DNA of 9,005 bases from a virus (taxonomy: Duplodnaviria; Heunggongvirae; Uroviricota; Caudoviricetes): IMG/VR virus record IMGVR_UViG_2734482785_000011, positions 1-9,005 of that record. One strand, given 5' to 3'. The position numbers and the translations under genes were made by a program. Every line of letters begins with the position of its first letter. Position 1 is the first letter of the stretch. The notes beneath the pieces were generated by a model, which saw only the letters and a list, made by a program, of their open reading frames with translations, searched no databases and was not told where the DNA came from. Shown here piece after piece: positions 1-9,005 of the stretch.

Positions 1-473
1 CGATAGGTTGCAACACCAGTTGCACGTTGAGTCATGAACACGTCGGTTTGAGTCCAAGTGTCACCACCGAATTCTGGCAGGACGTCAGTCCACGCACCGA
101 TGTCGTATGCTACACCGTAGTTACGGCCGTAATCGATGGAGCCGTAGTCACCGAATTTCAGGCCAGCGAAGGCAAGACGGGTTTTGTCTTTGGAGGAACC
201 CTGAGATTCAGCGCGGTTGCCTTTGAATTCATATTCCCACTGACCGAAACCAGTCAGTTGATCGTTGATTTGGGTTTCACCTTTGAAGCCAAGACGAGCA
301 TAAGTTTTGTCACCATCGTGCTTATCGTTAGAGGAGAAGTAGTGCTCGGCATTAACTTTTCCATACAGATCCAGTTTGTTGCTGTCTTTGTTATAAATCT
401 CTGCTGCCTGAGCAGACATCGCCATTAATACTGACGCAGCTACAGCAGAGATTGCCACTGTTAATTTTTTCAT
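1..473 (-). CDS. nmpC: General porin of the OmpC/OmpF/PhoE family, N-terminal part only (start codon at 473-471, gene continues past position 1); NmpC/OmpD/Lc-type prophage porin
   Basis: Reverse-complement translation from the ATG at 473-471 gives [48 protein letters not shown]...[25 protein letters not shown]...[59 protein letters not shown]: signal peptide followed by the AEIYNKD mature N-terminus and conserved porin blocks. AGGA Shine-Dalgarno about 8 nt upstream on the minus strand. Symbol assigned from recalled similarity to NmpC, not from a search. Confidence 0.85.
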
Positions 474-716
474 CGTGAATCCTTAGTCCTTTTCGGAACT
501 ATTATTAAAAAATATTGTCACTGCGGCCTAAATATACATCTAATCGGTATGGCTATTTCAAGATACGGGGTTTATTTAATGATTTAGAGTGTGATCAAGA
601 TCTCGTTTATGCGTGGTAATAATTATTGGAGATGTTTTTGTAATGAGAGATGTGTTTCTGAAATGCAATGAAAAGTTATTATTTTTGTATTTTATAATGT
701 AAATTTTGCGTACTGG

Positions 717-730
717 TTTACGTACGTAAA
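717..730. promoter_or_regulatory. Perfect 14-bp palindrome TTTACGTACGTAAA in the divergent porin/small-ORF intergenic region; candidate operator for a dimeric regulator
   Basis: Sequence is its own reverse complement; it lies in a 450 bp AT-rich region between divergently oriented genes, next to a TATAAT hexamer at 693-698. Confidence 0.3.
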
Positions 731-923
731 AATTTAAATATGATGTTAAGAGTGGTCACTTTGCCACACAGCTTAAACCAGCCGCCAAGCGGGGTTTTTT
801 ATGCCCGAAAAGCGGCGCAGTACGTTAAACGCGCTGGTGGTTGCGAATACAGGTCTTTCAGCTTGATGGCTTTTTCGACAAGAGTTATTGGTATGTCACG
901 TTAACCAGAAAAGGGAAAAAGAC

Positions 924-1121
924 ATGCTAAAACAGCAGGATATGACCGAAACTGCCAGAGTGGTGTTTAATGAATTAAGCGTCACCGAACCGGCGACCGT
1001 CGGGGAAATTGCGCAGAATACTTACCTTTCACGCGAACGCTGCCAGTTAATACTGACCCAGCTTGTTATGGCGGGTCTGGCAGATTATCAGTTCGGTTGT
1101 TACAGACGCCTTCCTCAGTGA
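924..1121 (+). CDS. Small hypothetical protein (65 aa) with winged-helix/HTH-like character; alternative TTG start at 888
   Basis: ORF track 888..1121; the ATG at 924 is preceded by AGGGA about 7 nt upstream. Translation MLKQQDMTETARVVFNELSVTEPATVGEIAQNTYLSRERCQLILTQLVMAGLADY has an HTH-like segment (TVGEIAQNTYLSRERCQLIL). The stop codon sits inside a terminator hairpin. Confidence 0.5.
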   Translation: MLKQQDMTETARVVFNELSVTEPATVGEIAQNTYLSRERCQLILTQLVMAGLADYQFGCYRRLPQ

Positions 1122-1131
1122 AGGCTTTTTT
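1108..1131 (+). terminator. Rho-independent terminator (stem GCCTTC/GAAGGC, 6-nt loop, T6 tract) ending the small ORF transcript
   Basis: gccttc ctcagt gaaggc tttttt read directly; it overlaps the TGA stop at 1119-1121. Confidence 0.6.
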
Positions 1132-1271
1132 ATTTGTGGTAATGGGCGGCTGGTGGGTGTTAGCGGCACCTGCCAGCCATCTGCTCATGCGTTGGGGTCA
1201 CAAGCAAACCTCAGGCCCATCTGCTTTGCGCAAAAGCGGAATGAGCCTATCAGAGAAGTGCTTATTGATCT

Positions 1272-2318
1272 ATGGCTAATACTGTAAAAATATCCAGTTG
1301 TGAGTTAATCAACGCTGATTGCCTGGAATTTATCCAGACCTTACCGGAAAACTCTGTCGATCTGATAGTCACGGACCCGCCATACTTTAAAGTGAAGCCC
1401 GAGGGCTGGGATAACCAGTGGAAGGGCGACGATGATTATCTGAAATGGCTGGACCAGTGTCTGGCGCAGTTCTGGCGGGTACTGAAGCCTGCCGGAAGTC
1501 TCTACCTGTTCTGTGGTCATCGCCTGGCATCTGATATCGAAATCATGATGCGTGAGCGCTTTAATGTGCTGAACCACATTATCTGGGCGAAGCCGTCCGG
1601 ACGCTGGAACGGGTGCAACAAGGAAAGCCTTCGGGCGTATTTTCCGGCAACAGAACGCATTCTGTTTGCTGAACATTATCAGGGGCCATATCAGCCCAAA
1701 AATGACGGCTACGCGGCAAAGGGGCGCGAGCTTAAGCAGCACATCATGGCCCCGCTGATTTCTTACTTCCGTGATGCGCGTGAATCACTGGGGATAACGT
1801 CGAAACAGATAGCAGAAGCCACCGGAAAGAAAAACATGGCTTCGCACTGGTTTGGTACCAGTCAGTGGCAGTTACCGAACGAAGCTGATTACAGAAAACT
1901 GCAGGCGTTGTTTGCGCGTATTGCAGCAGAAAAACATCAACGCGGGGAACTGGAAAAGCCACACCACCAGCTGGTCAGCATATATAGTGAACTGAACCGG
2001 CAATATGCCAGCCTGCTGGATGAGTACAAATCTCTGCGGCGTTATTTTTCCGTATCGGCTGCCGTTCCGTATACGGATGTCTGGACGCACAAGCCTGTGC
2101 CGTATTACCCCGGCAAACATCCCTGTGAGAAACCGGCGGATATGTTGCGTCAGATAATTACCGCCAGCAGTCGTCCGGGAGATTTGGTGGCTGATTTTTT
2201 TATGGGGTCAGGCTCAACAATAAAAGCGGCACTTTCACTGGGACGCTGTGCGATTGGCGTGGAGCTGGAAGAAGAGAGATTTAATCAGACTGTGAACGAA
2301 ATAAAAAACTGCTGTTAA
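1272..2318 (+). CDS. DNA methyltransferase, beta-class amino-MTase (probably N6-adenine; N4-cytosine not excluded), 348 aa, no restriction partner in the window
   Basis: DPPY catalytic motif (motif IV) near the N-terminus (LIVTDPPYF) and an FxGxG AdoMet-binding motif (motif I) near the C-terminus (DFFMGSGST). The IV-before-I order defines the beta class. Single ATG start at 1272 (in-frame TGA stop at 1266-1268 just upstream); weak Shine-Dalgarno. Confidence 0.9.
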   Translation: MANTVKISSCELINADCLEFIQTLPENSVDLIVTDPPYFKVKPEGWDNQWKGDDDYLKWLDQCLAQFWRVLKPAGSLYLFCGHRLASDIEIMMRERFNVLNHIIWAKPSGRWNGCNKESLRAYFPATERILFAEHYQGPYQPKNDGYAAKGRELKQHIMAPLISYFRDARESLGITSKQIAEATGKKNMASHWFGTSQWQLPNEADYRKLQALFARIAAEKHQRGELEKPHHQLVSIYSELNRQYASLLDEYKSLRRYFSVSAAVPYTDVWTHKPVPYYPGKHPCEKPADMLRQIITASSRPGDLVADFFMGSGSTIKAALSLGRCAIGVELEEERFNQTVNEIKNCC

Positions 2319-2832
2319 TTTTTATGTTGGTGTTTTCTTTATTCTATAAAAACACAAAACATATACTTATATTTGCAGTAATTGACGCTATTTTTTGTTG
2401 AAAAAATATCCGGGCTTATTAATATCCATTCCCGGTTCCGAGGGAGAATAGGGAAATAATGCATACGTGGTCGTTTTGTTCCTCCTGAGGAACCACTGAC
2501 TAAGCTTTTTATCGTTGTGGCACTGGCGCATTGTTTTTGGCGAGGAAACAGGAGCACATGCTCATTCCGGGCTGTTATGGCCTCAGTGCTTATTTTTGGC
2601 CATCAGAATGGCGCATTGTCGAAAAGAAGTAGCAGGATTTAGCGTTGAGAGGCTGATGATGCGTCATTCTGATGCTGTTGCAGATATAATTTGAGGTGTA
2701 TCCCAGTGCGGGAGTGGCCGGGAATATTTTACGCCGAAGGTCACAACATATTGCTTATTGAGGCAGGTGATATGTTTCGGGAGGCACCCGACACCTCAAA
2801 CCTTATAATGATAGCGTGTTCTTTTAGTCATT

Positions 2833-2857
2833 AACCGCCGTGTCAGGCGGTTTTTTT
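2833..2857 (+). terminator. Strong rho-independent terminator (stem AACCGCC/GGCGGTT, loop GTGTCA, T7 tract); candidate late-operon terminator (tR'-like) or 3' end of an untranslated leader/sRNA
   Basis: aaccgcc gtgtca ggcggtt ttttt read directly. No plus-strand ORF of 60 aa or more in the 500 bp upstream. Confidence 0.6.
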
Positions 2858-3094
2858 ACGCAGCGGTATAAAAATATCATATTTAATAATTTCCAGAGAA
2901 ATAAAATTGTTTGTATATTGTCGGGCATGTGTTACTCGTGCGTGAAAAGTTCGCAAAAAATAAGAACAAAAAGATAAAGTTACATAACTTGACTTGATGC
3001 GTTATTGCTCCTGCATCATTTAACCGTATTATCAAAGGCGGTTCTGAGGGGGGGCACCTGTTCACCGATGATATTGATTCCCTGAAGAACCAAT

Positions 3095-3170
<76 letters not shown>

Positions 3171-3173
3171 TAT

Positions 3174-3248
<75 letters not shown>

Positions 3249-3609
3249 ACAGTAGACGAAATCTGGTTATATTAGGCACTGCACATTGATATGTGGGGCG
3301 TTTTCCTGATTCCTTACCGCGTCCTGTTCTGTAATATGTGATGCAGGTTACAGTCCAGTGCCATTTTTTTACAATAATGGCATGGTGCATTGTCGGTGGA
3401 GATTTTGTATTTCCTGGCAGGGGCCGATGATGCACTATCCCTGTGTTGTAAAATAATACCGCAGAGGTGTTCCTCAGTGCGAGGTGGAGGGAAGAGTCGG
3501 TTTAGCGAGAAAACACAGTACCTGTTATCAGGTCAGATATTTCGGGAGTCCTCCCCTGACACCTTTGTTTTATTACAATAAAAATACCCTATTTTCTGCA
3601 TTGACCAGC

Positions 3610-3630
3610 CGCCACCCAGGCGTTTTTTTT
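3610..3630 (+). terminator. Weak terminator-like hairpin (CGCC/GGCG, 5-nt loop) followed by a T8 tract
   Basis: cgcc accca ggcg tttttttt read directly; the short stem makes this the weakest of the stacked terminators. Confidence 0.35.
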
Positions 3631-3652
3631 ATTCACAATCCTGTTTCTTATG

Positions 3653-3673
3653 GCTCGCTACGGCGAGCTTTTT
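3653..3673 (+). terminator. Rho-independent terminator (stem GCTCGC/GCGAGC, loop TACG, T5 tract)
   Basis: gctcgc tacg gcgagc ttttt read directly. Confidence 0.5.
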
Positions 3674-3760
3674 CATATCTGCGTCACGTCCGGCGTACAT
3701 CGCATCAGATAACACCACACAAAAGGCATCTGCGGGTGTCTTTGACGGGGTGTTTTTTAC

Positions 3761-3782
3761 GGGCCGCTGGTGGCCCTTTTTT
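3761..3782 (+). terminator. Rho-independent terminator (stem GGGCC/GGCCC, loop GCTGGT, T6 tract) about 20 nt upstream of the holin-like gene start
   Basis: gggcc gctggt ggccc tttttt read directly; followed by AGGAG and the ATG at 3802. Confidence 0.6.
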
Positions 3783-3801
3783 ATTTACAGGAGAAAAAAG
3801 T

Positions 3802-4194
3802 ATGTCTGAACCCTTGTCCGGTTCCGGCACGGCTGCGGCGCTCGGCGGGGCGACGGTATTCGGGCTGTTTACCGGAACGGATTTCGGGATTGTGTTTGGT
3901 GCGTTCGCCGGAGCGTTATTTGTGGCAACGATGCCGCAGCAGCTTTCAGCCTGGCGTGTGGCGGCACATTTTCTGGTGTCGTTCATTGTCGGTGTGCTGG
4001 GCGCAGAGGTTCTGGCATCCTGGCTGGTAAAGCATACAGGGTTTGACGGTGCGCCTGTCGACGCACTGTGTGCAGTGCTGGTGTCAGTGGTGTCGGTGAA
4101 GATTCTCTCGTTCATCCACCAGCAGGATATTGCATCACTGGTGTCTGGCCTGTTCTCCCGCCTGCGGGGTGGAGGAGGCGGCAATGTTAAGTAA
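3802..4194 (+). CDS. Putative holin (130 aa, 3-4 predicted transmembrane helices), first gene of the lysis cassette
   Basis: ATG at 3802 preceded by AGGAG at an appropriate spacing. The ORF-track entry 3484..4194 is the same frame with a spurious N-terminal extension. Product MSEPLSGSGTAAALGGATVFGLFTG...VLGAEVLASWLV...ALCAVLVSVVSVKILSF is strongly hydrophobic with a short charged C-terminus, and sits immediately upstream of an endolysin. Confidence 0.6.
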   Translation: MSEPLSGSGTAAALGGATVFGLFTGTDFGIVFGAFAGALFVATMPQQLSAWRVAAHFLVSFIVGVLGAEVLASWLVKHTGFDGAPVDALCAVLVSVVSVKILSFIHQQDIASLVSGLFSRLRGGGGGNVK

Positions 4195-4462
4195 CCTTCC
4201 CGGATTACTGAATGTGGCGTTATGCACGGTTATCGTGCTGACGCTCTTTTTTTATCGTCGCCGTGATTCCAGACATAAACCGCTGATGTCATGGCTGGCC
4301 TGGCTGCTGATGCTGCTGTATGCCTTTGCGCCCCTCAGCTATCTGTGTGGTCGCCCGTTAGCAACGGGCTGGCTGGAAGTGTTTTTTAATCTGCTGTTCT
4401 GCGTGCTGGTGATACGCGCACGCGGGAACGTCACAAAAATCTTTCCATTGTTGAGGCACTGA
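4184..4462 (+). CDS. Small membrane protein (92 aa, 2-3 transmembrane helices); putative second holin, antiholin or lysis-associated protein
   Basis: ATG at 4184 preceded by GGAGGAGG; overlaps the stop of the upstream gene (4192-4194) and ends 1 nt before the endolysin ATG, indicating translational coupling. Product MLSNLPGLLNVALCTVIVLTLFFYRRRDSRHKPLMSWLAWLLMLLYAFAPLSYL... The ORF-track TTG start at 4130 is rejected in favour of the ATG. Confidence 0.55.
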   Translation: MLSNLPGLLNVALCTVIVLTLFFYRRRDSRHKPLMSWLAWLLMLLYAFAPLSYLCGRPLATGWLEVFFNLLFCVLVIRARGNVTKIFPLLRH

Positions 4463-4463
4463 G

Positions 4464-5009
4464 ATGAAATCAAAGGACGTCATTTTTGATGAAATCCTCG
4501 GAAAAGAGGGTGGCTACGTCAATCATCCGGATGATAAAGGCGGGCCGACAAAATGGGGTATTACGGAAAAAGTCGCTCGCGCTCACGGATATCGCGGCGA
4601 TATGCGCGACCTTACACGCGGTCAGGCGCTGGAAATACTCGAGGCGGATTACTGGTTCGGACCACGTTTTGACCAGGTCGCCGCATTATCCCCTGATATT
4701 GCTGCAGAGTTGTGTGATACCGGTGTGAATATGGGGCCGTCCGTAGCATCGAAAATGCTCCAGCGCTGGCTGAACGTTTTCAACCTGCAAGGCAAATTGT
4801 TCCCGGATATGGACGCAGACGGGCGTATCGGCCCCCGCACGATTAATGCACTACGGACTTATCTGCAAAAACGCGGCAAAGACGGCGAACTGGTGATGCT
4901 GAAGGCGCTGAATTGCACGCAGGGTGACCGCTATCTGGAGCTGGCAGAAAAACGCGAGGCCAACGAGTCGTTTGTCTACGGCTGGATGAAAGAGCGCGTA
5001 GCAGTTTAA
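4464..5009 (+). CDS. Endolysin, glycoside hydrolase family 108-type N-terminal domain with a C-terminal peptidoglycan-binding domain (181 aa), no signal peptide
   Basis: N-terminal motif ILGKEGGYVNHPDDKGGPTKWGIT matches the GH108 signature (EGGY catalytic region). C-terminal half (RIGPRTINALRTYLQ...) resembles PG_binding_3 domains. GAGG Shine-Dalgarno 7 nt upstream. Confidence 0.9.
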   Translation: MKSKDVIFDEILGKEGGYVNHPDDKGGPTKWGITEKVARAHGYRGDMRDLTRGQALEILEADYWFGPRFDQVAALSPDIAAELCDTGVNMGPSVASKMLQRWLNVFNLQGKLFPDMDADGRIGPRTINALRTYLQKRGKDGELVMLKALNCTQGDRYLELAEKREANESFVYGWMKERVAV

Positions 5010-5103
5010 AAACTGACGCTGAAGTGCTGAACACCCTCAACTCATGCTGGCTCTTTTCTGGGGCTACGATGAGCGAAAGTAAGGGGCATAGTATCAGATA
5101 GCA

Positions 5104-5141
5104 AAAACCCCGGCTGCGGTAACAGTCCGGGGTTTTCTGTT
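5104..5141 (+). terminator. Rho-independent terminator after the lysis cassette; perfect 10-bp inverted repeat AAAACCCCGG/CCGGGGTTTT flanked by A- and T-tracts (possibly bidirectional)
   Basis: aaaaccccgg (5104-5113) and ccggggtttt (5127-5136) are exact reverse complements; a T-rich tract follows. Confidence 0.6.
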
Positions 5142-5205
5142 TCTGGCCTTGGGTAAGGCAAAGGAGAACATGAGGAAGTATAAACTAATCCTGTTGAGGT
5201 TGACT

Positions 5206-5352
5206 ATGAAAAACGGCCTTGAATTGAAAGCGCCTGTAACTGATGACATCAGCAGAGCGGTGGCTTTTGCCATTAAGTGGGTGGCGGTTGGCATCGCCGT
5301 GTCTCCGATACTGTATGGGCTGGCAAAATTGATTGTTGCTCTGAAATCGTGA
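5206..5352 (+). CDS. Small single-TM peptide (48 aa), hypothetical; paralog of the 5533..5619 peptide
   Basis: ATG at 5206 with GAGG 6 nt upstream (alternative ATG 5170, TTG 5149). Product MKNGLELKAPVTDDISRAVAFAIKWVAVGIAVSPILYGLAKLIVALKS has a C-terminal hydrophobic helix. Confidence 0.4.
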   Translation: MKNGLELKAPVTDDISRAVAFAIKWVAVGIAVSPILYGLAKLIVALKS

Positions 5353-5532
5353 GTGGTGATGGGTGTCATGAGGGACATGGCAACTGATGATAAAAGCAGA
5401 AACAACTCCGCAGGGTGCTGACGATGCTGCAAAAATCATCGCGGTATGTCGGGGAATCAGGTACATACTGACGCCAGTTGCATGGATTATTTGTACCGCA
5501 CTGGTTGCATACACAACAATTTATTTAAACAG

Positions 5533-5619
5533 ATGAGTGCTGATTTTATTCGGGCGGTGGCTTTTGCCATTCGTCTTGTGGCGGTCGCTGTTCTGATTTG
5601 GGCTGTGCGTTGGTGGTGA
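5533..5619 (+). CDS. Small hydrophobic peptide (28 aa from ATG 5533; 57 aa if started at ATG 5446), paralog of the 5206..5352 peptide; possibly a decayed copy
   Basis: Product MSADFIRAVAFAIRLVAVAVLIWAVRWW shares the core RAVAFAI[KR].VAV with the upstream peptide. The 18-nt run gcggtggcttttgccatt is identical at 5257-5274 and 5554-5571. No clear Shine-Dalgarno. Stop TGA at 5617-5619 lies 1 nt before the next ATG. Confidence 0.3.
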   Translation: MSADFIRAVAFAIRLVAVAVLIWAVRWW

Positions 5620-5620
5620 T

Positions 5621-5803
5621 ATGACGCGAAAACACTGGACACACAGAATGCCGCGAACGGCGGCGAAATGGGCACTGGTAGCGATACTGGTGCCTTTTTT
5701 ATTGGTGGGATGCGTCAGTCTGGATAAGGCGCGCCAGCTTTTCGGTACAGCTTCTCAGGTCTGCGAAATTGTTGATAGTGTCCGGCAGTGTATGCAGAAC
5801 TGA
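5621..5803 (+). CDS. Small lipoprotein (60 aa precursor; lipobox LVGC; mature part about 30 aa with three cysteines); alternative start ATG 5648
   Basis: Product MTRKHWTHRMPRTAAKWALVAILVPFLLVGCVSLDKARQLFGTASQVCEIVDSVRQCMQN: positively charged n-region, hydrophobic core, L-V-G-C lipobox. Confidence 0.5.
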   Translation: MTRKHWTHRMPRTAAKWALVAILVPFLLVGCVSLDKARQLFGTASQVCEIVDSVRQCMQN

Positions 5804-5846
5804 CCGACGGTGAGAGCAGAATATTTTTTTAGAGGAGCGAAATTCT

Positions 5847-6197
5847 ATGCCATCACGAATCCCACACGCCTGCCGTAAGCGTGGATGTGCAGGTACAACC
5901 ACAGACAGTTCTGGTTACTGCGATAAACATCGTGGCGAAGGATGGGTACAGCATCAACGCGGACTGAGCCGCCACCAGCGTGGCTATGGCTCGAAATGGG
6001 ATGCCATACGTGCGCGCATACTGAAGCGTGATAATCATCTGTGTCAGAACTGCCTGCGCAATGGGATAGCCGTTGAAGCCAGAACTGTGGACCACATCAT
6101 CCCGAAAGCGCATGGTGGAACAGACGCAGACAGTAACCTGCAGAGTCTGTGCTGGCCCTGCCATAAAGCAAAAACAGCGCGCGAACGCATCAATTGA
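5847..6197 (+). CDS. HNH homing-type endonuclease (116 aa), the packaging-associated HNH protein of HK97-like phages
   Basis: GAGGAG Shine-Dalgarno 9 nt upstream of the ATG at 5847. HNH motif ...TVDHIIPKAHGGTDADSNLQSLCWPCHKAKT plus N-terminal Cys-rich segment CRKRGCAGTTTDSSGYCDKH. Sits immediately upstream of the terminase genes. Confidence 0.9.
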   Translation: MPSRIPHACRKRGCAGTTTDSSGYCDKHRGEGWVQHQRGLSRHQRGYGSKWDAIRARILKRDNHLCQNCLRNGIAVEARTVDHIIPKAHGGTDADSNLQSLCWPCHKAKTARERIN

Positions 6198-6343
6198 TAA
6201 CAGTTCCCATCTGTAGGGGAGGGGCGGGTCAAATCTCTGCAACCCTGGCTGCTCAGTACCGCCGCCTGACCTTTCCTCGCATCGCCGCAGGTTCGAAAAC
6301 TTTTTTTGGAATGTGATTGAATGATTGATAGGTAAAACCGATT
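6198..6343. other. Probable cos (cohesive end/packaging initiation) region between the HNH gene and the terminase small subunit
   Basis: Position only: in HK97-like phages cos lies between the HNH gene (right genome end) and TerS (left genome end). The 146 bp non-coding interval contains a G-rich segment gtaggggaggggcgggtc. The exact cosN cannot be defined from sequence alone. Confidence 0.3.
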
Positions 6344-6826
6344 ATGTCAGGACCCCCGAAAACCCCGCCACGCCTGCATTTGATACGAGGCAACCCCTCA
6401 AAGCGCCCCGTTAAAGACCCAAAAAAAACCGCTAAAAAGGATGAAAAAGGTCTCCCTAAAATTCCGCAACATTTAGGGTCGCAGGGGAAGTACTGGTTCA
6501 GGCGAATGGCGGAAGAACTGAATGCGGAAGGGATCATTTCTCAGCTTGATGCGCGTGCACTCGAGTTACTGGTGGAAGCCTACACCGAATACCGGCATCA
6601 CTGCGAAACACTTGATGCTGAGGGTTATACCTACCGCACGGAAACGCAGAACGGTGATGTGCTGATTAAGGCACACCCGGCTGCTGCGATGAAAGCGGAT
6701 GCCTGGAAGCGGATCCGGGCGATGCTTGCAGAGTTTGGTATGTCACCGGCAAGCCGGGCTAAAGTAAATACCGCCGGACCGGATGATGTTGATCCGCTGG
6801 CGGAGCTTTTAAAAGCGAGAGACTGA
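6344..6826 (+). CDS. Terminase small subunit, P27 family (160 aa)
   Basis: Product MSGPPKTPPRLHLIRGNPSKRP... with basic N-terminus and conserved LHLIRGNPSKR-type motif typical of P27-family TerS. Its stop overlaps the TerL start (TGATG). Confidence 0.85.
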   Translation: MSGPPKTPPRLHLIRGNPSKRPVKDPKKTAKKDEKGLPKIPQHLGSQGKYWFRRMAEELNAEGIISQLDARALELLVEAYTEYRHHCETLDAEGYTYRTETQNGDVLIKAHPAAAMKADAWKRIRAMLAEFGMSPASRAKVNTAGPDDVDPLAELLKARD

Positions 6827-8583
6827 TGGCAAAAGTGGCTGACGGGATCCGCTACGCCGAACGTGTTGTTGCAGGAGAAATTGTCGCTGGCGAATTTGTC
6901 CGTCTGGCCTGCCAGCGTTTTCTTGATGATCTGAAGTACGGCGAAGAGCGGGGGATTTATTTCAGTGAACCTCGTGCGCAGCACATCCTGAATTTCTACA
7001 AATTTGTGCCCCATGTGAAAGGGGCGCTGGCAGGCCAGCCCATTGAACTGATGGACTGGCATGTATTTATCCTCATTAATATTTTTGGTTTTGTCATTCC
7101 GCTGGTGAATGAAGAGACCGGGGAAGTTGTCATGCGCAGCGATGGCAGCGGACGCCCGGTGATGGTGCGCCGGTTCCGGACGGCGTACAACGAAGTCGCC
7201 CGTAAAAACGCAAAATCAACCCTGTCATCGGGTATCGGTCTGTATATGACGGGGGCAGATGGTGAAGGCGGGGCTGAGGTGTATTCAGCCGCAACCACGC
7301 GTGACCAGGCCAGAATCGTGTTTGAAGACGCCAAAAATATGGTCAGAAAAGCCCGGTCGACACTCGGGCGCTTGTTTGATTTCAACAAGCTGGCGATTTA
7401 CCAGGAGCAGAGCGCATCAAAATTTGAACCGCTTTCCTCGGATGCAAACAACCTGGACGGTCTGAACATCCACTGCGCCATTATTGATGAGCTGCATGCA
7501 CATAAAACCCGCGACGTGTGGGACGTTCTGGAAACGGCAACCGGTGCCCGTCTGCAGTCCCTGTTATTTGGTATCACCACGGCGGGCTTTAACAAGGAAG
7601 GGATTTGTTACGAGCAGCGCGATTACGCCATTAAGGTATTGCGAGGCTATAACAGCGACGTGGAGGGCGCGGTAAAAGACGACTCCTACTTTGCGATCAT
7701 TTACACGCTCGATGAGGGAGATGATCCGTTTGATGAAACGGTCTGGCAGAAAGCGAATCCGGGCCTGGGCATCTGTAAACGCTGGGATGATCTGCGTCGT
7801 CTGGCGAAAAAAGCGAAGGAGCAGGTCTCTGCGCGGGTGAATTTTTTCACAAAACACATGAATGTGTGGGTAACAGCAGAGTCTGCCTGGATGGACATGA
7901 TTAAGTGGGAGAAGTGCGAATACATTGCCCCACGACATGAGCTGAAAACGTATCCCATGTGGGTAGGCGTTGACCTTGCTCATAAGATTGATATCTGTGC
8001 GGCGGCAAAACTCTGGCGAACCGATAACGGGCATGTTCATGCCGATTTTAAATTCTGGCTTCCGGAAGGACGGCTGGAACGATGCTCGCGGCAGCAGGCA
8101 GAACTTTACCGGAAGTGGTCGGAGATGGATAAGCTGATTCTGACGGATGGTGATGTTATCGATCATGCTCAGATAAAAAGTGACTTACTGGAATGGATTG
8201 GCGGTGAAAACCTCAGGGAACTGGGATTTGACCCGTGGAGCGCGATGCAGTTCAGCCTGGCACTGGCTGAAGAAGGGATACCGCTGGTGGAGGTTCCGCA
8301 GACGGTCCGCAATCTGTCAGAGGCCATGAAGGAAACGGAATCACTGGTCTATGCCGGGCGTTTCCATCACAGCAATCATCCGGTCATGAACTGGATGATG
8401 TCTAACGTTACGGTAAAACCGGACAAAAACGACAACATCTTCCCGAATAAATCCACGCCTGAAGCCAAAATCGACGGCCCTGTTGCGATGTTTACAGCAA
8501 TGAGCCGGATGCTGGTCAATGGCGGTGAACCGGAGCCGGATCTGTCTGAACACCTGATCAGTGTTGGTATCCGCTCGCTTTAA
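6826..8583 (+). CDS. Terminase large subunit (585 aa), Terminase_1 / HK97-like family
   Basis: ATPase-domain blocks [18 protein letters not shown] and [21 protein letters not shown], and DELH (Walker B-like) in [18 protein letters not shown]; size and position between TerS and portal. Confidence 0.95.
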
Positions 8584-8594
8584 CCGAGGGCATT

Positions 8595-8777
8595 ATGTTT
8601 CTGATAATTCTCACGCCACTGGTGGGCGTGCTGGGGGCGCTTTTGCTGTCGTATGGCACATGGCTGATTTATCCCCCGGCAGGTTTTGTTGTTGCCGGGG
8701 CGCTGTGTCTGTGCTGGTCGTGGCTGGTTGCGCGTTATCTCGATCGCGGTCACCGGGTTGCCTCCGGAGGTGAGTAA
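8595..8777 (+). CDS. Small membrane protein (60 aa, two predicted TM helices) between TerL and portal; hypothetical
   Basis: ATG at 8595 with GAGGG 4-5 nt upstream; product [60 protein letters not shown]. Its TAA stop overlaps the portal ATG (TAATG at 8775-8779). Confidence 0.45.
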
Positions 8778-9005
8778 TGTTTTTCCTGGGGCTTTTTCAA
8801 CGCAAAAATAACACCCCCGTCACAACGCCCGGGATGCTTGCGGAAGAACTTGGATTGTCATACGACACCTATACCGGAAAGCGGATCAGCAGCCAGCGGG
8901 CCATGCGGCTGACGGCGGTGTATTCCTGCGTCAGGGTGCTGGCGGAGTCTGTTGGTATGCTGCCCTGCAGCCTCTACAAAATCACCGGCACCCTTAAAAC
9001 ACGGG
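8777..9005 (+). CDS. Portal protein, HK97 family, N-terminal part (gene continues beyond the window end)
   Basis: Translation [71 protein letters not shown]... matches the conserved N-terminal region of HK97-type portals (AMRLxAVYxCVRxLxESVxxLP). Confidence 0.85.
   Translation, partial: MFFLGLFQRKNNTPVTTPGMLAEELGLSYDTYTGKRISSQRAMRLTAVYSCVRVLAESVGMLPCSLYKITGTLKTR

Follow-up and report, generated by a model that had tools for sequence, protein, structure and literature searches.

What occupies the 553 bp that separate the last transfer RNA (tRNA) gene from the first lysis gene in a lambdoid prophage fragment? The question is raised by a 9,005-nt stretch of tailed-phage DNA, hereafter the window (IMG/VR record IMGVR_UViG_2734482785_000011, positions 1 to 9,005), which is contig JUCF01000127.1 of assembly GCA_000798235.1. 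In an earlier sequence-only reading, this gap was described as an empty cargo slot with three stacked terminators in front of the holin gene. Comparisons with related loci suggest a different picture, to which we assign a probability of roughly 0.7. The gap (Table 1) appears to lie at the downstream end of 1.5 kb of non-coding leader in a phiP27-like lambdoid late operon, assembled from mobile modules that include a second copy of an RNA resembling the small RNA (sRNA) family STnc100 (Rfam RF02076). This is ordinary lambdoid-phage architecture.

STnc100-like RNA elements upstream of the holin gene

Contrary to the description of the gap as empty, about 290 of its 553 bp form a structured RNA element, as positions 3343-3632 match a profile of ~290-nt elements from relatives (E 7e-70). 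In a repeat search, positions 3380-3632 were also recovered as a diverged direct repeat of positions 2600-2860, with a spacing of ~771 bp. The upstream and downstream copies are referred to here as copy A and copy B, respectively, with copy B spanning 3363-3632. Homologs of copy B are found upstream of the holin gene in most of the 86 related loci (designated by L-numbers) that were fetched through the holin, and the gap sequence is matched in 560 of 5,426 complete Escherichia coli genomes.

Across ~290 nt, 36 distinct elements could be aligned. Their consensus fold opens with a long 5' hairpin (P1) and continues with a closing helix of six pairs that encloses several internal hairpins, namely three helices of 3-6 pairs and a short fourth; an A/U-rich linker then leads to the terminator. 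Standard pairs occupy 96.6% of the pair cells, compared with 37-56% when the partners are slid. Compensatory changes are present in 19 of the 51 pairs, compared with 1-9 in the slid controls and 9.4 +/- 1.8 in shuffled alignments; these covariation figures overstate independence because the sequences are related, but the slid controls keep this relatedness and fall far short. Within P1, compensatory changes support 9 of 22 pairs. The core is conserved far more strongly than the linker across the family, and the linker corresponds to the seed-like region in the PasD sRNAs.

For copy A, the Rfam STnc100 model gives 38.1 bits (E 1.4e-5) with model positions 1-206 spanned, which does not reach the Rfam gathering score (47 bits). 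The minimum-energy fold of copy A is the family consensus structure (z -4.3), and its P1 hairpin folds at -33.9 kcal/mol (z -4.6). A core-only covariance model (R1), from which the window sequences were excluded, scores 80.7 bits on copy A and 55.4 bits on copy B, with typical relatives at ~111 bits. R1 also recognizes the canonical STnc100 of L013 (32.7 bits, E 3e-6), which scores 84.6 bits on the Rfam model and lies between a tRNA gene and a holin gene in an Enterobacter genome. Copy A has both the STnc100 architecture and homology to a canonical member, and copy B retains the architecture in part. Both end in a terminator, with 7 bp and U7 in copy A and 4 bp and U8, a weak form, in copy B. 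Since R1 misses PasD (5.3 bits), the window elements are best placed by sequence in a divergent STnc100-like subfamily rather than in the PasD group. In a prophage of E. coli E2348/69 (PP5; L006), positions 199-308 match R1 with 29.9 bits (E 1.7e-5). This region lies downstream of a DUF3927 gene, overlaps an annotated pseudogene, and is probably another unannotated STnc100-like copy.

P1 is a module of its own, because it is found without the core beside tRNA genes in six loci (L019, L029, L030, L032, L044, and L086; ~2445-2562). In the P1-only loci, P1 is followed by a different ~345-nt sequence; repeated GGGACAAAGTCC motifs were seen in L009 and L019. The hairpin TGCCATT...AATGGCA at about 3350-3386, which had been proposed as an additional RNA element, can be drawn, but it is not an independent structure. 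Its 3' arm belongs to the 95-nt P1 hairpin of copy B, which supplants it in the fold, and the small hairpins of relatives shift register and overlap P1, such that a conserved element at this site was rejected.

Tandem units and the divergence of copy B

The non-coding region 2319-3801 holds two tandem units, each in the order promoter, leader, tRNA genes (where present), P1, core, and terminator. This organization is evident because the same promoter and leader, as a different allele, precede copy A as well as unit B. The unit A module was picked up by a promoter scan, and in alignments its homologs precede tRNA-Thr in L007, L009, and unit B. The -35 element, the 16-nt spacer, and the -10 element are kept upstream of tRNA-Thr in 37 distinct relatives while the flanks diverge, with variants TTGCTC, TTGCGA, and TTGAAA at -35 and TATTAT, TATCAT, and TAATAT at -10. 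The predicted transcription start of unit B is at ~3039-3040. In the leader hairpin, the pairing GGUUCU/AGAACC of unit B versus GGUUCC/GGAACC of unit A and L007 represents a compensatory change. Unit A has no tRNA genes; the 2498-2506 sequence GACTAAGCT may be a 9-12 nt remnant of the tRNA-Thr 5' end. The two units have therefore undergone reciprocal loss, in which unit A lost the tRNAs and kept a good RNA, and unit B kept the tRNAs and has an aberrant RNA.

Two other promoter assignments were rejected. The tRNA promoter stands directly after a Q-like antiterminator gene in L003 and L009 and could be taken for a Q-dependent late promoter, but in L052 and L086 it is preceded by a separate module, which is homologous to positions 745-830 of the window, including the tR'-like terminator at 781-803. 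Promoter-like sequences directly upstream of P1 and the core (GTTACA-17-TACAAT at 3347-3375 and a -10-like TAAAAT) are unconserved in relatives.

Duplication of the unit is recurrent, because two full B-type elements also stand in tandem upstream of a single holin gene in L087 (1349-1645 and 2370-2642) and L094 (993-1290 and 2363-2640). In L002 (phage SerU-LTIIb), the whole module of tRNA, sRNA-like element, and holin is duplicated (1122-2456 and 3028-4127), with a truncated holin gene in the first copy. This phage has its LT-IIb toxin genes in a different slot, after the endolysin gene.

Copy B departs from its family in several respects. When the gap was scanned by itself against Rfam (E <= 10), copy B gave no STnc100 match; the matches to Trp_leader, isrD, suhB, and RyhB were at chance level and were rejected. 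Its ortholog in L001 scores 29.9 bits on the Rfam STnc100 model. In the core and terminator of copy B, eight consensus pairs are broken, and 11 private changes fall at columns with at least 90% conservation. Its two nearest relatives have one or two such broken pairs and one such private change; among the other B-type elements, broken pairs mostly number 0-2, even where divergence reaches 25%. The minimum-energy fold of copy B reproduces P1 only. The differences from the nearest relative are unevenly distributed. Between window positions 3340-3632 and L016 positions 2541-2837, no differences occur in the 124 positions through P1 and the link, and then 32 occur in 170; P1 is identical to that of L016B, and the core differs at 20 of 103 positions. 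For the 3' part of copy B, the closest sampled element has 81% identity, whereas every other element has a neighbor of at least 93%. The copy B allele is known from one other assembly only, and no copy of the gap above ~89% identity was found among the 5,426 complete E. coli genomes. A recombinant junction with a long-branch allele outside the sample would fit this mosaic pattern, and the uneven differences from the nearest relative argue for such recombination over simple decay. We read the 3' part of copy B as being under relaxed constraint, and copy B as a whole is a divergent and probably degenerating member of a known prophage sRNA family.

Junction modules, terminators, and late transcription

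Downstream of copy B, the gap consists of two portable segments, M2 and M3. M2 follows unrelated upstream units in L034, L017, L026, and L012; its neighbors include a putative coding region (L034 and L017), another terminator (L026), and an open reading frame (ORF; Citrobacter). Its stem has one compensatory change in L026. M3, the holin leader, lies directly upstream of the holin gene in nearly all of ~90 relatives with 87-100% identity, and is 100% identical to that of a third lineage (L053 and L057). Its hairpins are conserved in 38 distinct sequences with little covariation.

The boundary between these two modules is the site of cargo insertion. In L007, 679 bp including terB and a DUF3927 gene lie exactly between the positions aligned to 3701 and 3709, and in L008 and L097 terB-DUF3927 is located immediately upstream of the same holin leader. 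In phiP27, stxA2e/stxB2e lie between the tRNA genes and the holin gene, on a backbone of TrmB-like gene, methylase gene, tRNA genes, and holin gene that is common with the window. Among 52 porcine Shiga toxin-producing E. coli (STEC) strains, stx2e has a methylase gene upstream in 71% and two holin coding sequences downstream in 73% (PMC12571312). These relatives thus carry an extra self-contained gene cassette between homologous flanks. The alignment to related prophages that the sequence-only reading had proposed as a check bears out the idea of a cargo slot, with terB-DUF3927 and stx2e as the cargo, but reduces it from 550 bp to a point at ~3701-3709.

The earlier statement that the gap has no convincing ORF is borne out. 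None of the three ORFs tested, namely 3390-3581 (63 codons, TTG start) and 3358-3456 (32 codons) on the plus strand and 3133-3435 (100 codons) on the minus strand, is conserved, as stops or frameshifts interrupt them in most of the 35 homologous elements. Pfam searches with ORFs 3390-3581 and 3133-3435, and with the 3484-3801 segment that precedes the holin start in frame, gave no match. The substitutions preserve RNA pairing instead, and a protein-coding gap was rejected.

Terminator-like sites are enriched, as a scan of positions 2300-3900 returned eight, compared with 1.4 +/- 1.3 in shuffles. The three sites named in the sequence-only reading lie where it placed them, and the second is well supported: T2 (3652-3673) has a 7-bp stem (3652-3658/3663-3669) followed by U5 and folds at -13.0 kcal/mol (z -2.85). 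The first, T1 (3610-3630), is present as a structure but is weak. It has a 4-bp stem CGCC/GGCG (3610-3613/3619-3622) and U8 (3623-3630), its fold of -5.9 to -6.1 kcal/mol is equalled by 39 of 200 shuffles, and the terminator scan did not report it. In relatives, the corresponding terminator has a 7-bp stem and hardly varies (consensus AACCGCC-N6-GGCGGTT followed by U8; -11.7 kcal/mol in the L001 ortholog). T1 is a damaged form of it, weakened by the loss of one stem G and a change from AACCG to AGCCG. The third, T3b (3761-3776), has a clear 6-bp stem and U6 (3777-3782), but it does not outperform shuffles when folded: five pairs form at -10.8 to -11.0 kcal/mol (z -0.85), which 40 of 200 shuffles equal. 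The strongest hairpin of the gap, T3a (3711-3752; -20.1 kcal/mol, z -4.6), which is followed by U6 (3753-3758), had been overlooked. Upstream of the tRNA genes, the terminator noted at 2833-2857 is confirmed as that of copy A (7-bp stem at 2833-2852, U7, -12.4 kcal/mol). A G+C-rich stem followed directly by a U-tract is thus found in T2, T3a, T3b, and the copy A terminator and is marginal in T1; T2, T3a, and the copy A terminator are also better than shuffles.

Two additional plus-strand terminator-like sites, at 781-803 and 1108-1125, were absent from the earlier account. The latter belongs to a clean terminator (1108-1131; GCCTTC-N6-GAAGGC followed by U6), located upstream of the methylase gene and partly within the end of the TrmB-like ORF. 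A transcript from upstream of 781 would meet up to seven hairpin and U-tract sites, two of which are weak. The terminators are not one designed stack: each sits in a mobile module of its own, which relatives carry in other combinations.

The closest available relative is L098, a 73-kb contig from another assembly that is 99.2% identical across the window and 100% identical across 2319-3801, and represents a complete-looking prophage. Directly upstream of its porin gene, at a position outside the window, lies a gene for a Q-family antiterminator (PF06530, 127 aa). The nearest complete E. coli genome (92.7% identity across 2300-3850) has the gene order Q, small ORF, methylase, tRNAs, and holin, as in the window. 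In both relatives, Q lies upstream on the same strand as the lysis cassette. Because a near-identical prophage encodes Q upstream, Q-dependent read-through is expected. This agrees with the earlier proposal that lysis depends on processive antitermination, as is normally expected of lambdoid late operons, and makes silencing of lysis for lack of Q unlikely. A candidate late promoter (717-744; TTTACG-16-TATGAT) is followed after ~40 nt by a weak hairpin and U6 (781-803), and from 778 onward the window shares homology with the terminator that directly follows Q in L001. Positions 717-803 are accordingly a candidate late promoter and tR' pair that may produce a short RNA of ~50 nt. The porin gene, on the opposite strand (1-474 in the window; 7529-9202 in L098), is located between the Q gene and the late genes; a late transcript initiated at a promoter adjacent to Q would cross it in antisense. 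This arrangement is reminiscent of nmpC in DLP12 and lc in phage PA-2.

In a lysogen, each unit would be transcribed from its own promoter and would stop at its own terminator. The unit B promoter would produce a precursor of tRNA-Thr, tRNA-Gly, and the sRNA, ending in principle at T1 and, because T1 is weakened, probably at T2, 40 nt further. Processing would free the tRNAs and a stable, probably Hfq-binding RNA; P1 may be an RNase III site, judging from its length and near-perfect pairing alone. Such expression has precedents. STnc100 copies are transcribed in uninduced EDL933, with one confirmed by Northern blot (PMC5331693). PasD, which adjoins Q and holin genes, is abundant in enteropathogenic E. 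coli (EPEC), and Northern blots showed that its stability is Hfq-dependent (PMC8550237; bioRxiv 10.64898/2026.05.13.724894). After induction, Q-modified polymerase from the upstream late promoter would read through all of the sites, such that the holin, second holin, and endolysin are expressed. The terminators may therefore insulate independently acquired modules, with lysis silence without Q as a by-product of modular assembly.

Several findings weigh against this interpretation. Both window copies fall below the Rfam gathering score and copy B is unseen by Rfam, and the link to PasD runs solely through the Rfam model. The M3 hairpins are too conserved in sequence for covariation support. 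A late promoter and Q-binding site were not confidently identified, as 717-744 is a consensus match only, and the promoters, transcript ends, processing, and termination efficiencies are predictions. Finally, given the uneven divergence of copy B, what appears damaged could be merely different.

This last point leads to an alternative in which copy B is a functional, neo-functionalised sRNA variant with a remodelled core, whose short terminator and U8, backed by T2, still work. The score retained on R1, the preserved P1, linker, and U8 tract, and the clustering of the divergence, which suggests import of a distinct allele, are in its favor, as is the complementarity between the private GGAGGG (3487-3492) and the private UCCUCC (3549-3554). 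However, the concentration of broken pairs and private changes has no counterpart in most B-type elements, the fold departs from the family core that copy A matches, and the allele is confined to a single other assembly; this alternative is unlikely. There is a somewhat smaller chance that the ~290-nt element is not simply one more Hfq sRNA but the conserved 3' trailer of a prophage tRNA operon, with P1 guiding RNase III to the tRNA-sRNA precursor and an unusually conserved core that binds a protein or acts in cis on RNA stability or late transcription. If so, the tandem duplication and reciprocal loss would represent subfunctionalisation of a non-coding transcription unit. A role in cis on the late transcript, through processing or stability of the tRNA/lysis RNA or through modulation of polymerase, may also be considered. 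The elements lie in sense orientation between Q and the lysis genes in every locus examined, P1 occurs alone beside tRNAs in some relatives, and conservation is concentrated in the core rather than the linker, an unusual pattern among base-pairing sRNAs. This idea is nonetheless improbable, given that both units are equipped with a conserved promoter and a terminator of their own, that these phages have Q and do not need an RNA antiterminator, and that the abundant PasD sRNAs depend on Hfq and show numerous trans targets in RNA interaction by ligation and sequencing (RIL-seq) data (PMC8550237).

The remaining alternatives deny the gap an RNA gene altogether. A functionless empty slot or deletion scar, in which three stacked terminators enforce Q dependence or silence a Q-less prophage, would account for the cargo of relatives at 3701/3709, for that of phiP27 between the tRNAs and the holin, for the lack of a conserved ORF, and for the enrichment of terminator-like sites. 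It is quite unlikely because more than half of the gap is conserved, covarying RNA, the slot is a point rather than the whole interval, each terminator sits in a module known from other contexts, T1 is weak, and the sibling prophage has Q. That the gap encodes a small protein, such as the 63-codon TTG ORF or one on the minus strand, is hardly credible. ORF 3390-3581 is open in the window, gene callers place a 63-aa gene at the equivalent site in L098, and phage vB_EcoS-683R6 is annotated with minus-strand "hypothetical proteins" across the homologous region. Against these annotations, the frame is interrupted in most of the homologous elements, including the two closest, and Pfam matches are lacking, while the substitutions keep the RNA pairing. 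A modular leader with a second, probably degenerating STnc100-like copy thus remains the preferred interpretation.

Downstream of the endolysin gene, a 60-aa ORF (5621-5803) has a lipobox-like LLVGC motif and a terminator-like hairpin (5670-5695) inside the ORF, and may encode a spanin component. Two of the related records, L097 (PP818812.1, named Actinobacillus phage vB_Apl-pPE4) and L010 (JAEWMQ010000075.1, a contig binned in a Bacillota metagenome-assembled genome), contain segments with 81-96% identity. Their host or bin assignments look doubtful, as they carry an E. coli-type prophage region.

Table 1. Features of the window, with the non-coding leader and its modules.
Feature	Position	Strand	Details
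Porin gene, 5' part	1-474	-	
TrmB-like ORF	924-1121	+	65 aa
N6/N4 DNA methylase	1272-2318	+	
Non-coding stretch	2319-3094		
Unit A promoter module	2382-2425	+	TTGACG 2382-2387; -35 TTGAAA 2398-2403; 16-nt spacer; -10 TAATAT 2420-2425
Unit A leader hairpin, GGUUCC...GGAACC	2434-2494	+	predicted fold -23.5 kcal/mol
Copy A, STnc100-like RNA	2598-2858	+	P1 2598-2676; multi-branch core 2691-2801; linker; terminator
Unit B promoter module	2989-3032	+	TTGACT 2989-2994; -35 TTGCTC 3005-3010; 16-nt spacer; -10 TATTAT 3027-3032
Unit B leader hairpin, GGUUCU...AGAACC	3040-3091	+	predicted fold -18 kcal/mol; ends 3 nt before tRNA-Thr
tRNA-Thr(UGU)	3095-3170	+	ARAGORN; Rfam tRNA 72.2 bits
tRNA-Gly(UCC)	3174-3248	+	ARAGORN; Rfam tRNA 62.9 bits
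Gap under study, tRNA-Gly to holin	3249-3801		553 bp
P1(B), long 5' hairpin of copy B	3363-3457	+	predicted fold -40.7 kcal/mol, z -4.2
Core of copy B, divergent multi-branch domain	3462-3569	+	R1 55.4 bits
A/U-rich linker and T1 of copy B	3570-3630	+	
M2, portable junction segment	3633-3708	+	T2; small hairpin ~3681-3698
Cargo insertion point, empty in window	3701-3709	.	L007 insert
M3, holin leader	3709-3801	+	93 bp; T3a; T3b; Shine-Dalgarno AGGAG 3789-3793
Holin (Phage_holin_8), lysis cassette gene 1	3802-4194	+	Pfam PF16931, E 3.9e-23
Second holin	4184-4462	+	
GH108 endolysin	4464-5009	+	
HNH endonuclease, P27-family small terminase, large terminase	downstream of endolysin	+	

Relation to known RNAs and prophages

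The window elements resemble STnc100 in the multi-branch core closed by a GAGGYG/CRCCUC-type helix, the A/U-rich linker, the intrinsic terminator, and an almost identical CGGGAGGCACCCG hairpin in the core. The matches between the models are reciprocal, and the genomic site is the same, namely the interval of lambdoid prophages that separates Q from the lysis genes, in some cases right behind a tRNA gene (L013). They differ in being sub-threshold (copy A at 38.1 bits and copy B without a match), in having an additional 5' hairpin of 80-95 nt that the Rfam model does not cover, and in being coupled to a promoter-leader-tRNA block.

For comparison with PasD, PasD1 and PasD2 of EPEC E2348/69 were located from published coordinates. 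Their scores on the Rfam STnc100 model (37.7 and 41.4 bits, respectively) are sub-threshold as is that of copy A. They also lie in sense orientation between Q and holin, beside DUF3927 genes, with the seed in the linker before the terminator. However, their linker and seed sequences are different, and they have neither the 5' hairpin nor the linkage to tRNA genes. No match between PasD1/PasD2 and the window copies was obtained with nhmmer or R1, and the UGUGAG seed context of PasD is absent from the window. As known sRNAs upstream of holin genes, PasA and PasD were thus both rejected as candidates, the seed context of PasA being likewise absent from the window and PasA lying on the opposite strand in E2348/69. 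A common ancestor has been argued for PasD and STnc100, which both adjoin Q and holin genes (bioRxiv 10.64898/2026.05.13.724894).

Short RNAs from the late promoter itself offer another comparison. The 6S RNA of phage lambda is a short late-promoter transcript that ends at tR' and is read through in the presence of Q. For StxS, the late promoter is constitutively active and transcription is terminated just downstream in lysogens, such that a terminator in the late-operon leader yields a short RNA that is extended by read-through with Q (PMC7547250). Unlike these two RNAs, the RNA units of the window have their own promoter apart from the late-promoter module and include tRNAs.

With phiP27, the window shares the succession of TrmB-like gene, DNA methylase gene, tRNA genes, slot, and Phage_holin_8 holin, as well as the same 93-bp holin leader after the cargo. 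The differences are that phiP27 has tRNA-Ile and tRNA-Arg genes and that its slot is filled, whereas that of the window is empty. Searches of phiP27 and of the Actinobacillus phage record (L097) found no STnc100-like element in either. Location of the cargo point between two portable terminator modules may aid in reading the context of toxin genes in phiP27-like prophages.

Taken together, these comparisons correct how the region is annotated, as gene callers predict either nothing or spurious small ORFs there, and add to the STnc100/PasD family a divergent, sub-threshold subfamily with a covarying 5' hairpin that is coupled to a promoter and tRNA genes. The understanding of lambdoid late gene control is unchanged. 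Relative to the known systems, what is new is modest: a 5' hairpin supported by covariation, a physical link to a promoter and tRNA genes, a unit duplicated in tandem whose copies underwent reciprocal loss, and the exact cargo junction.

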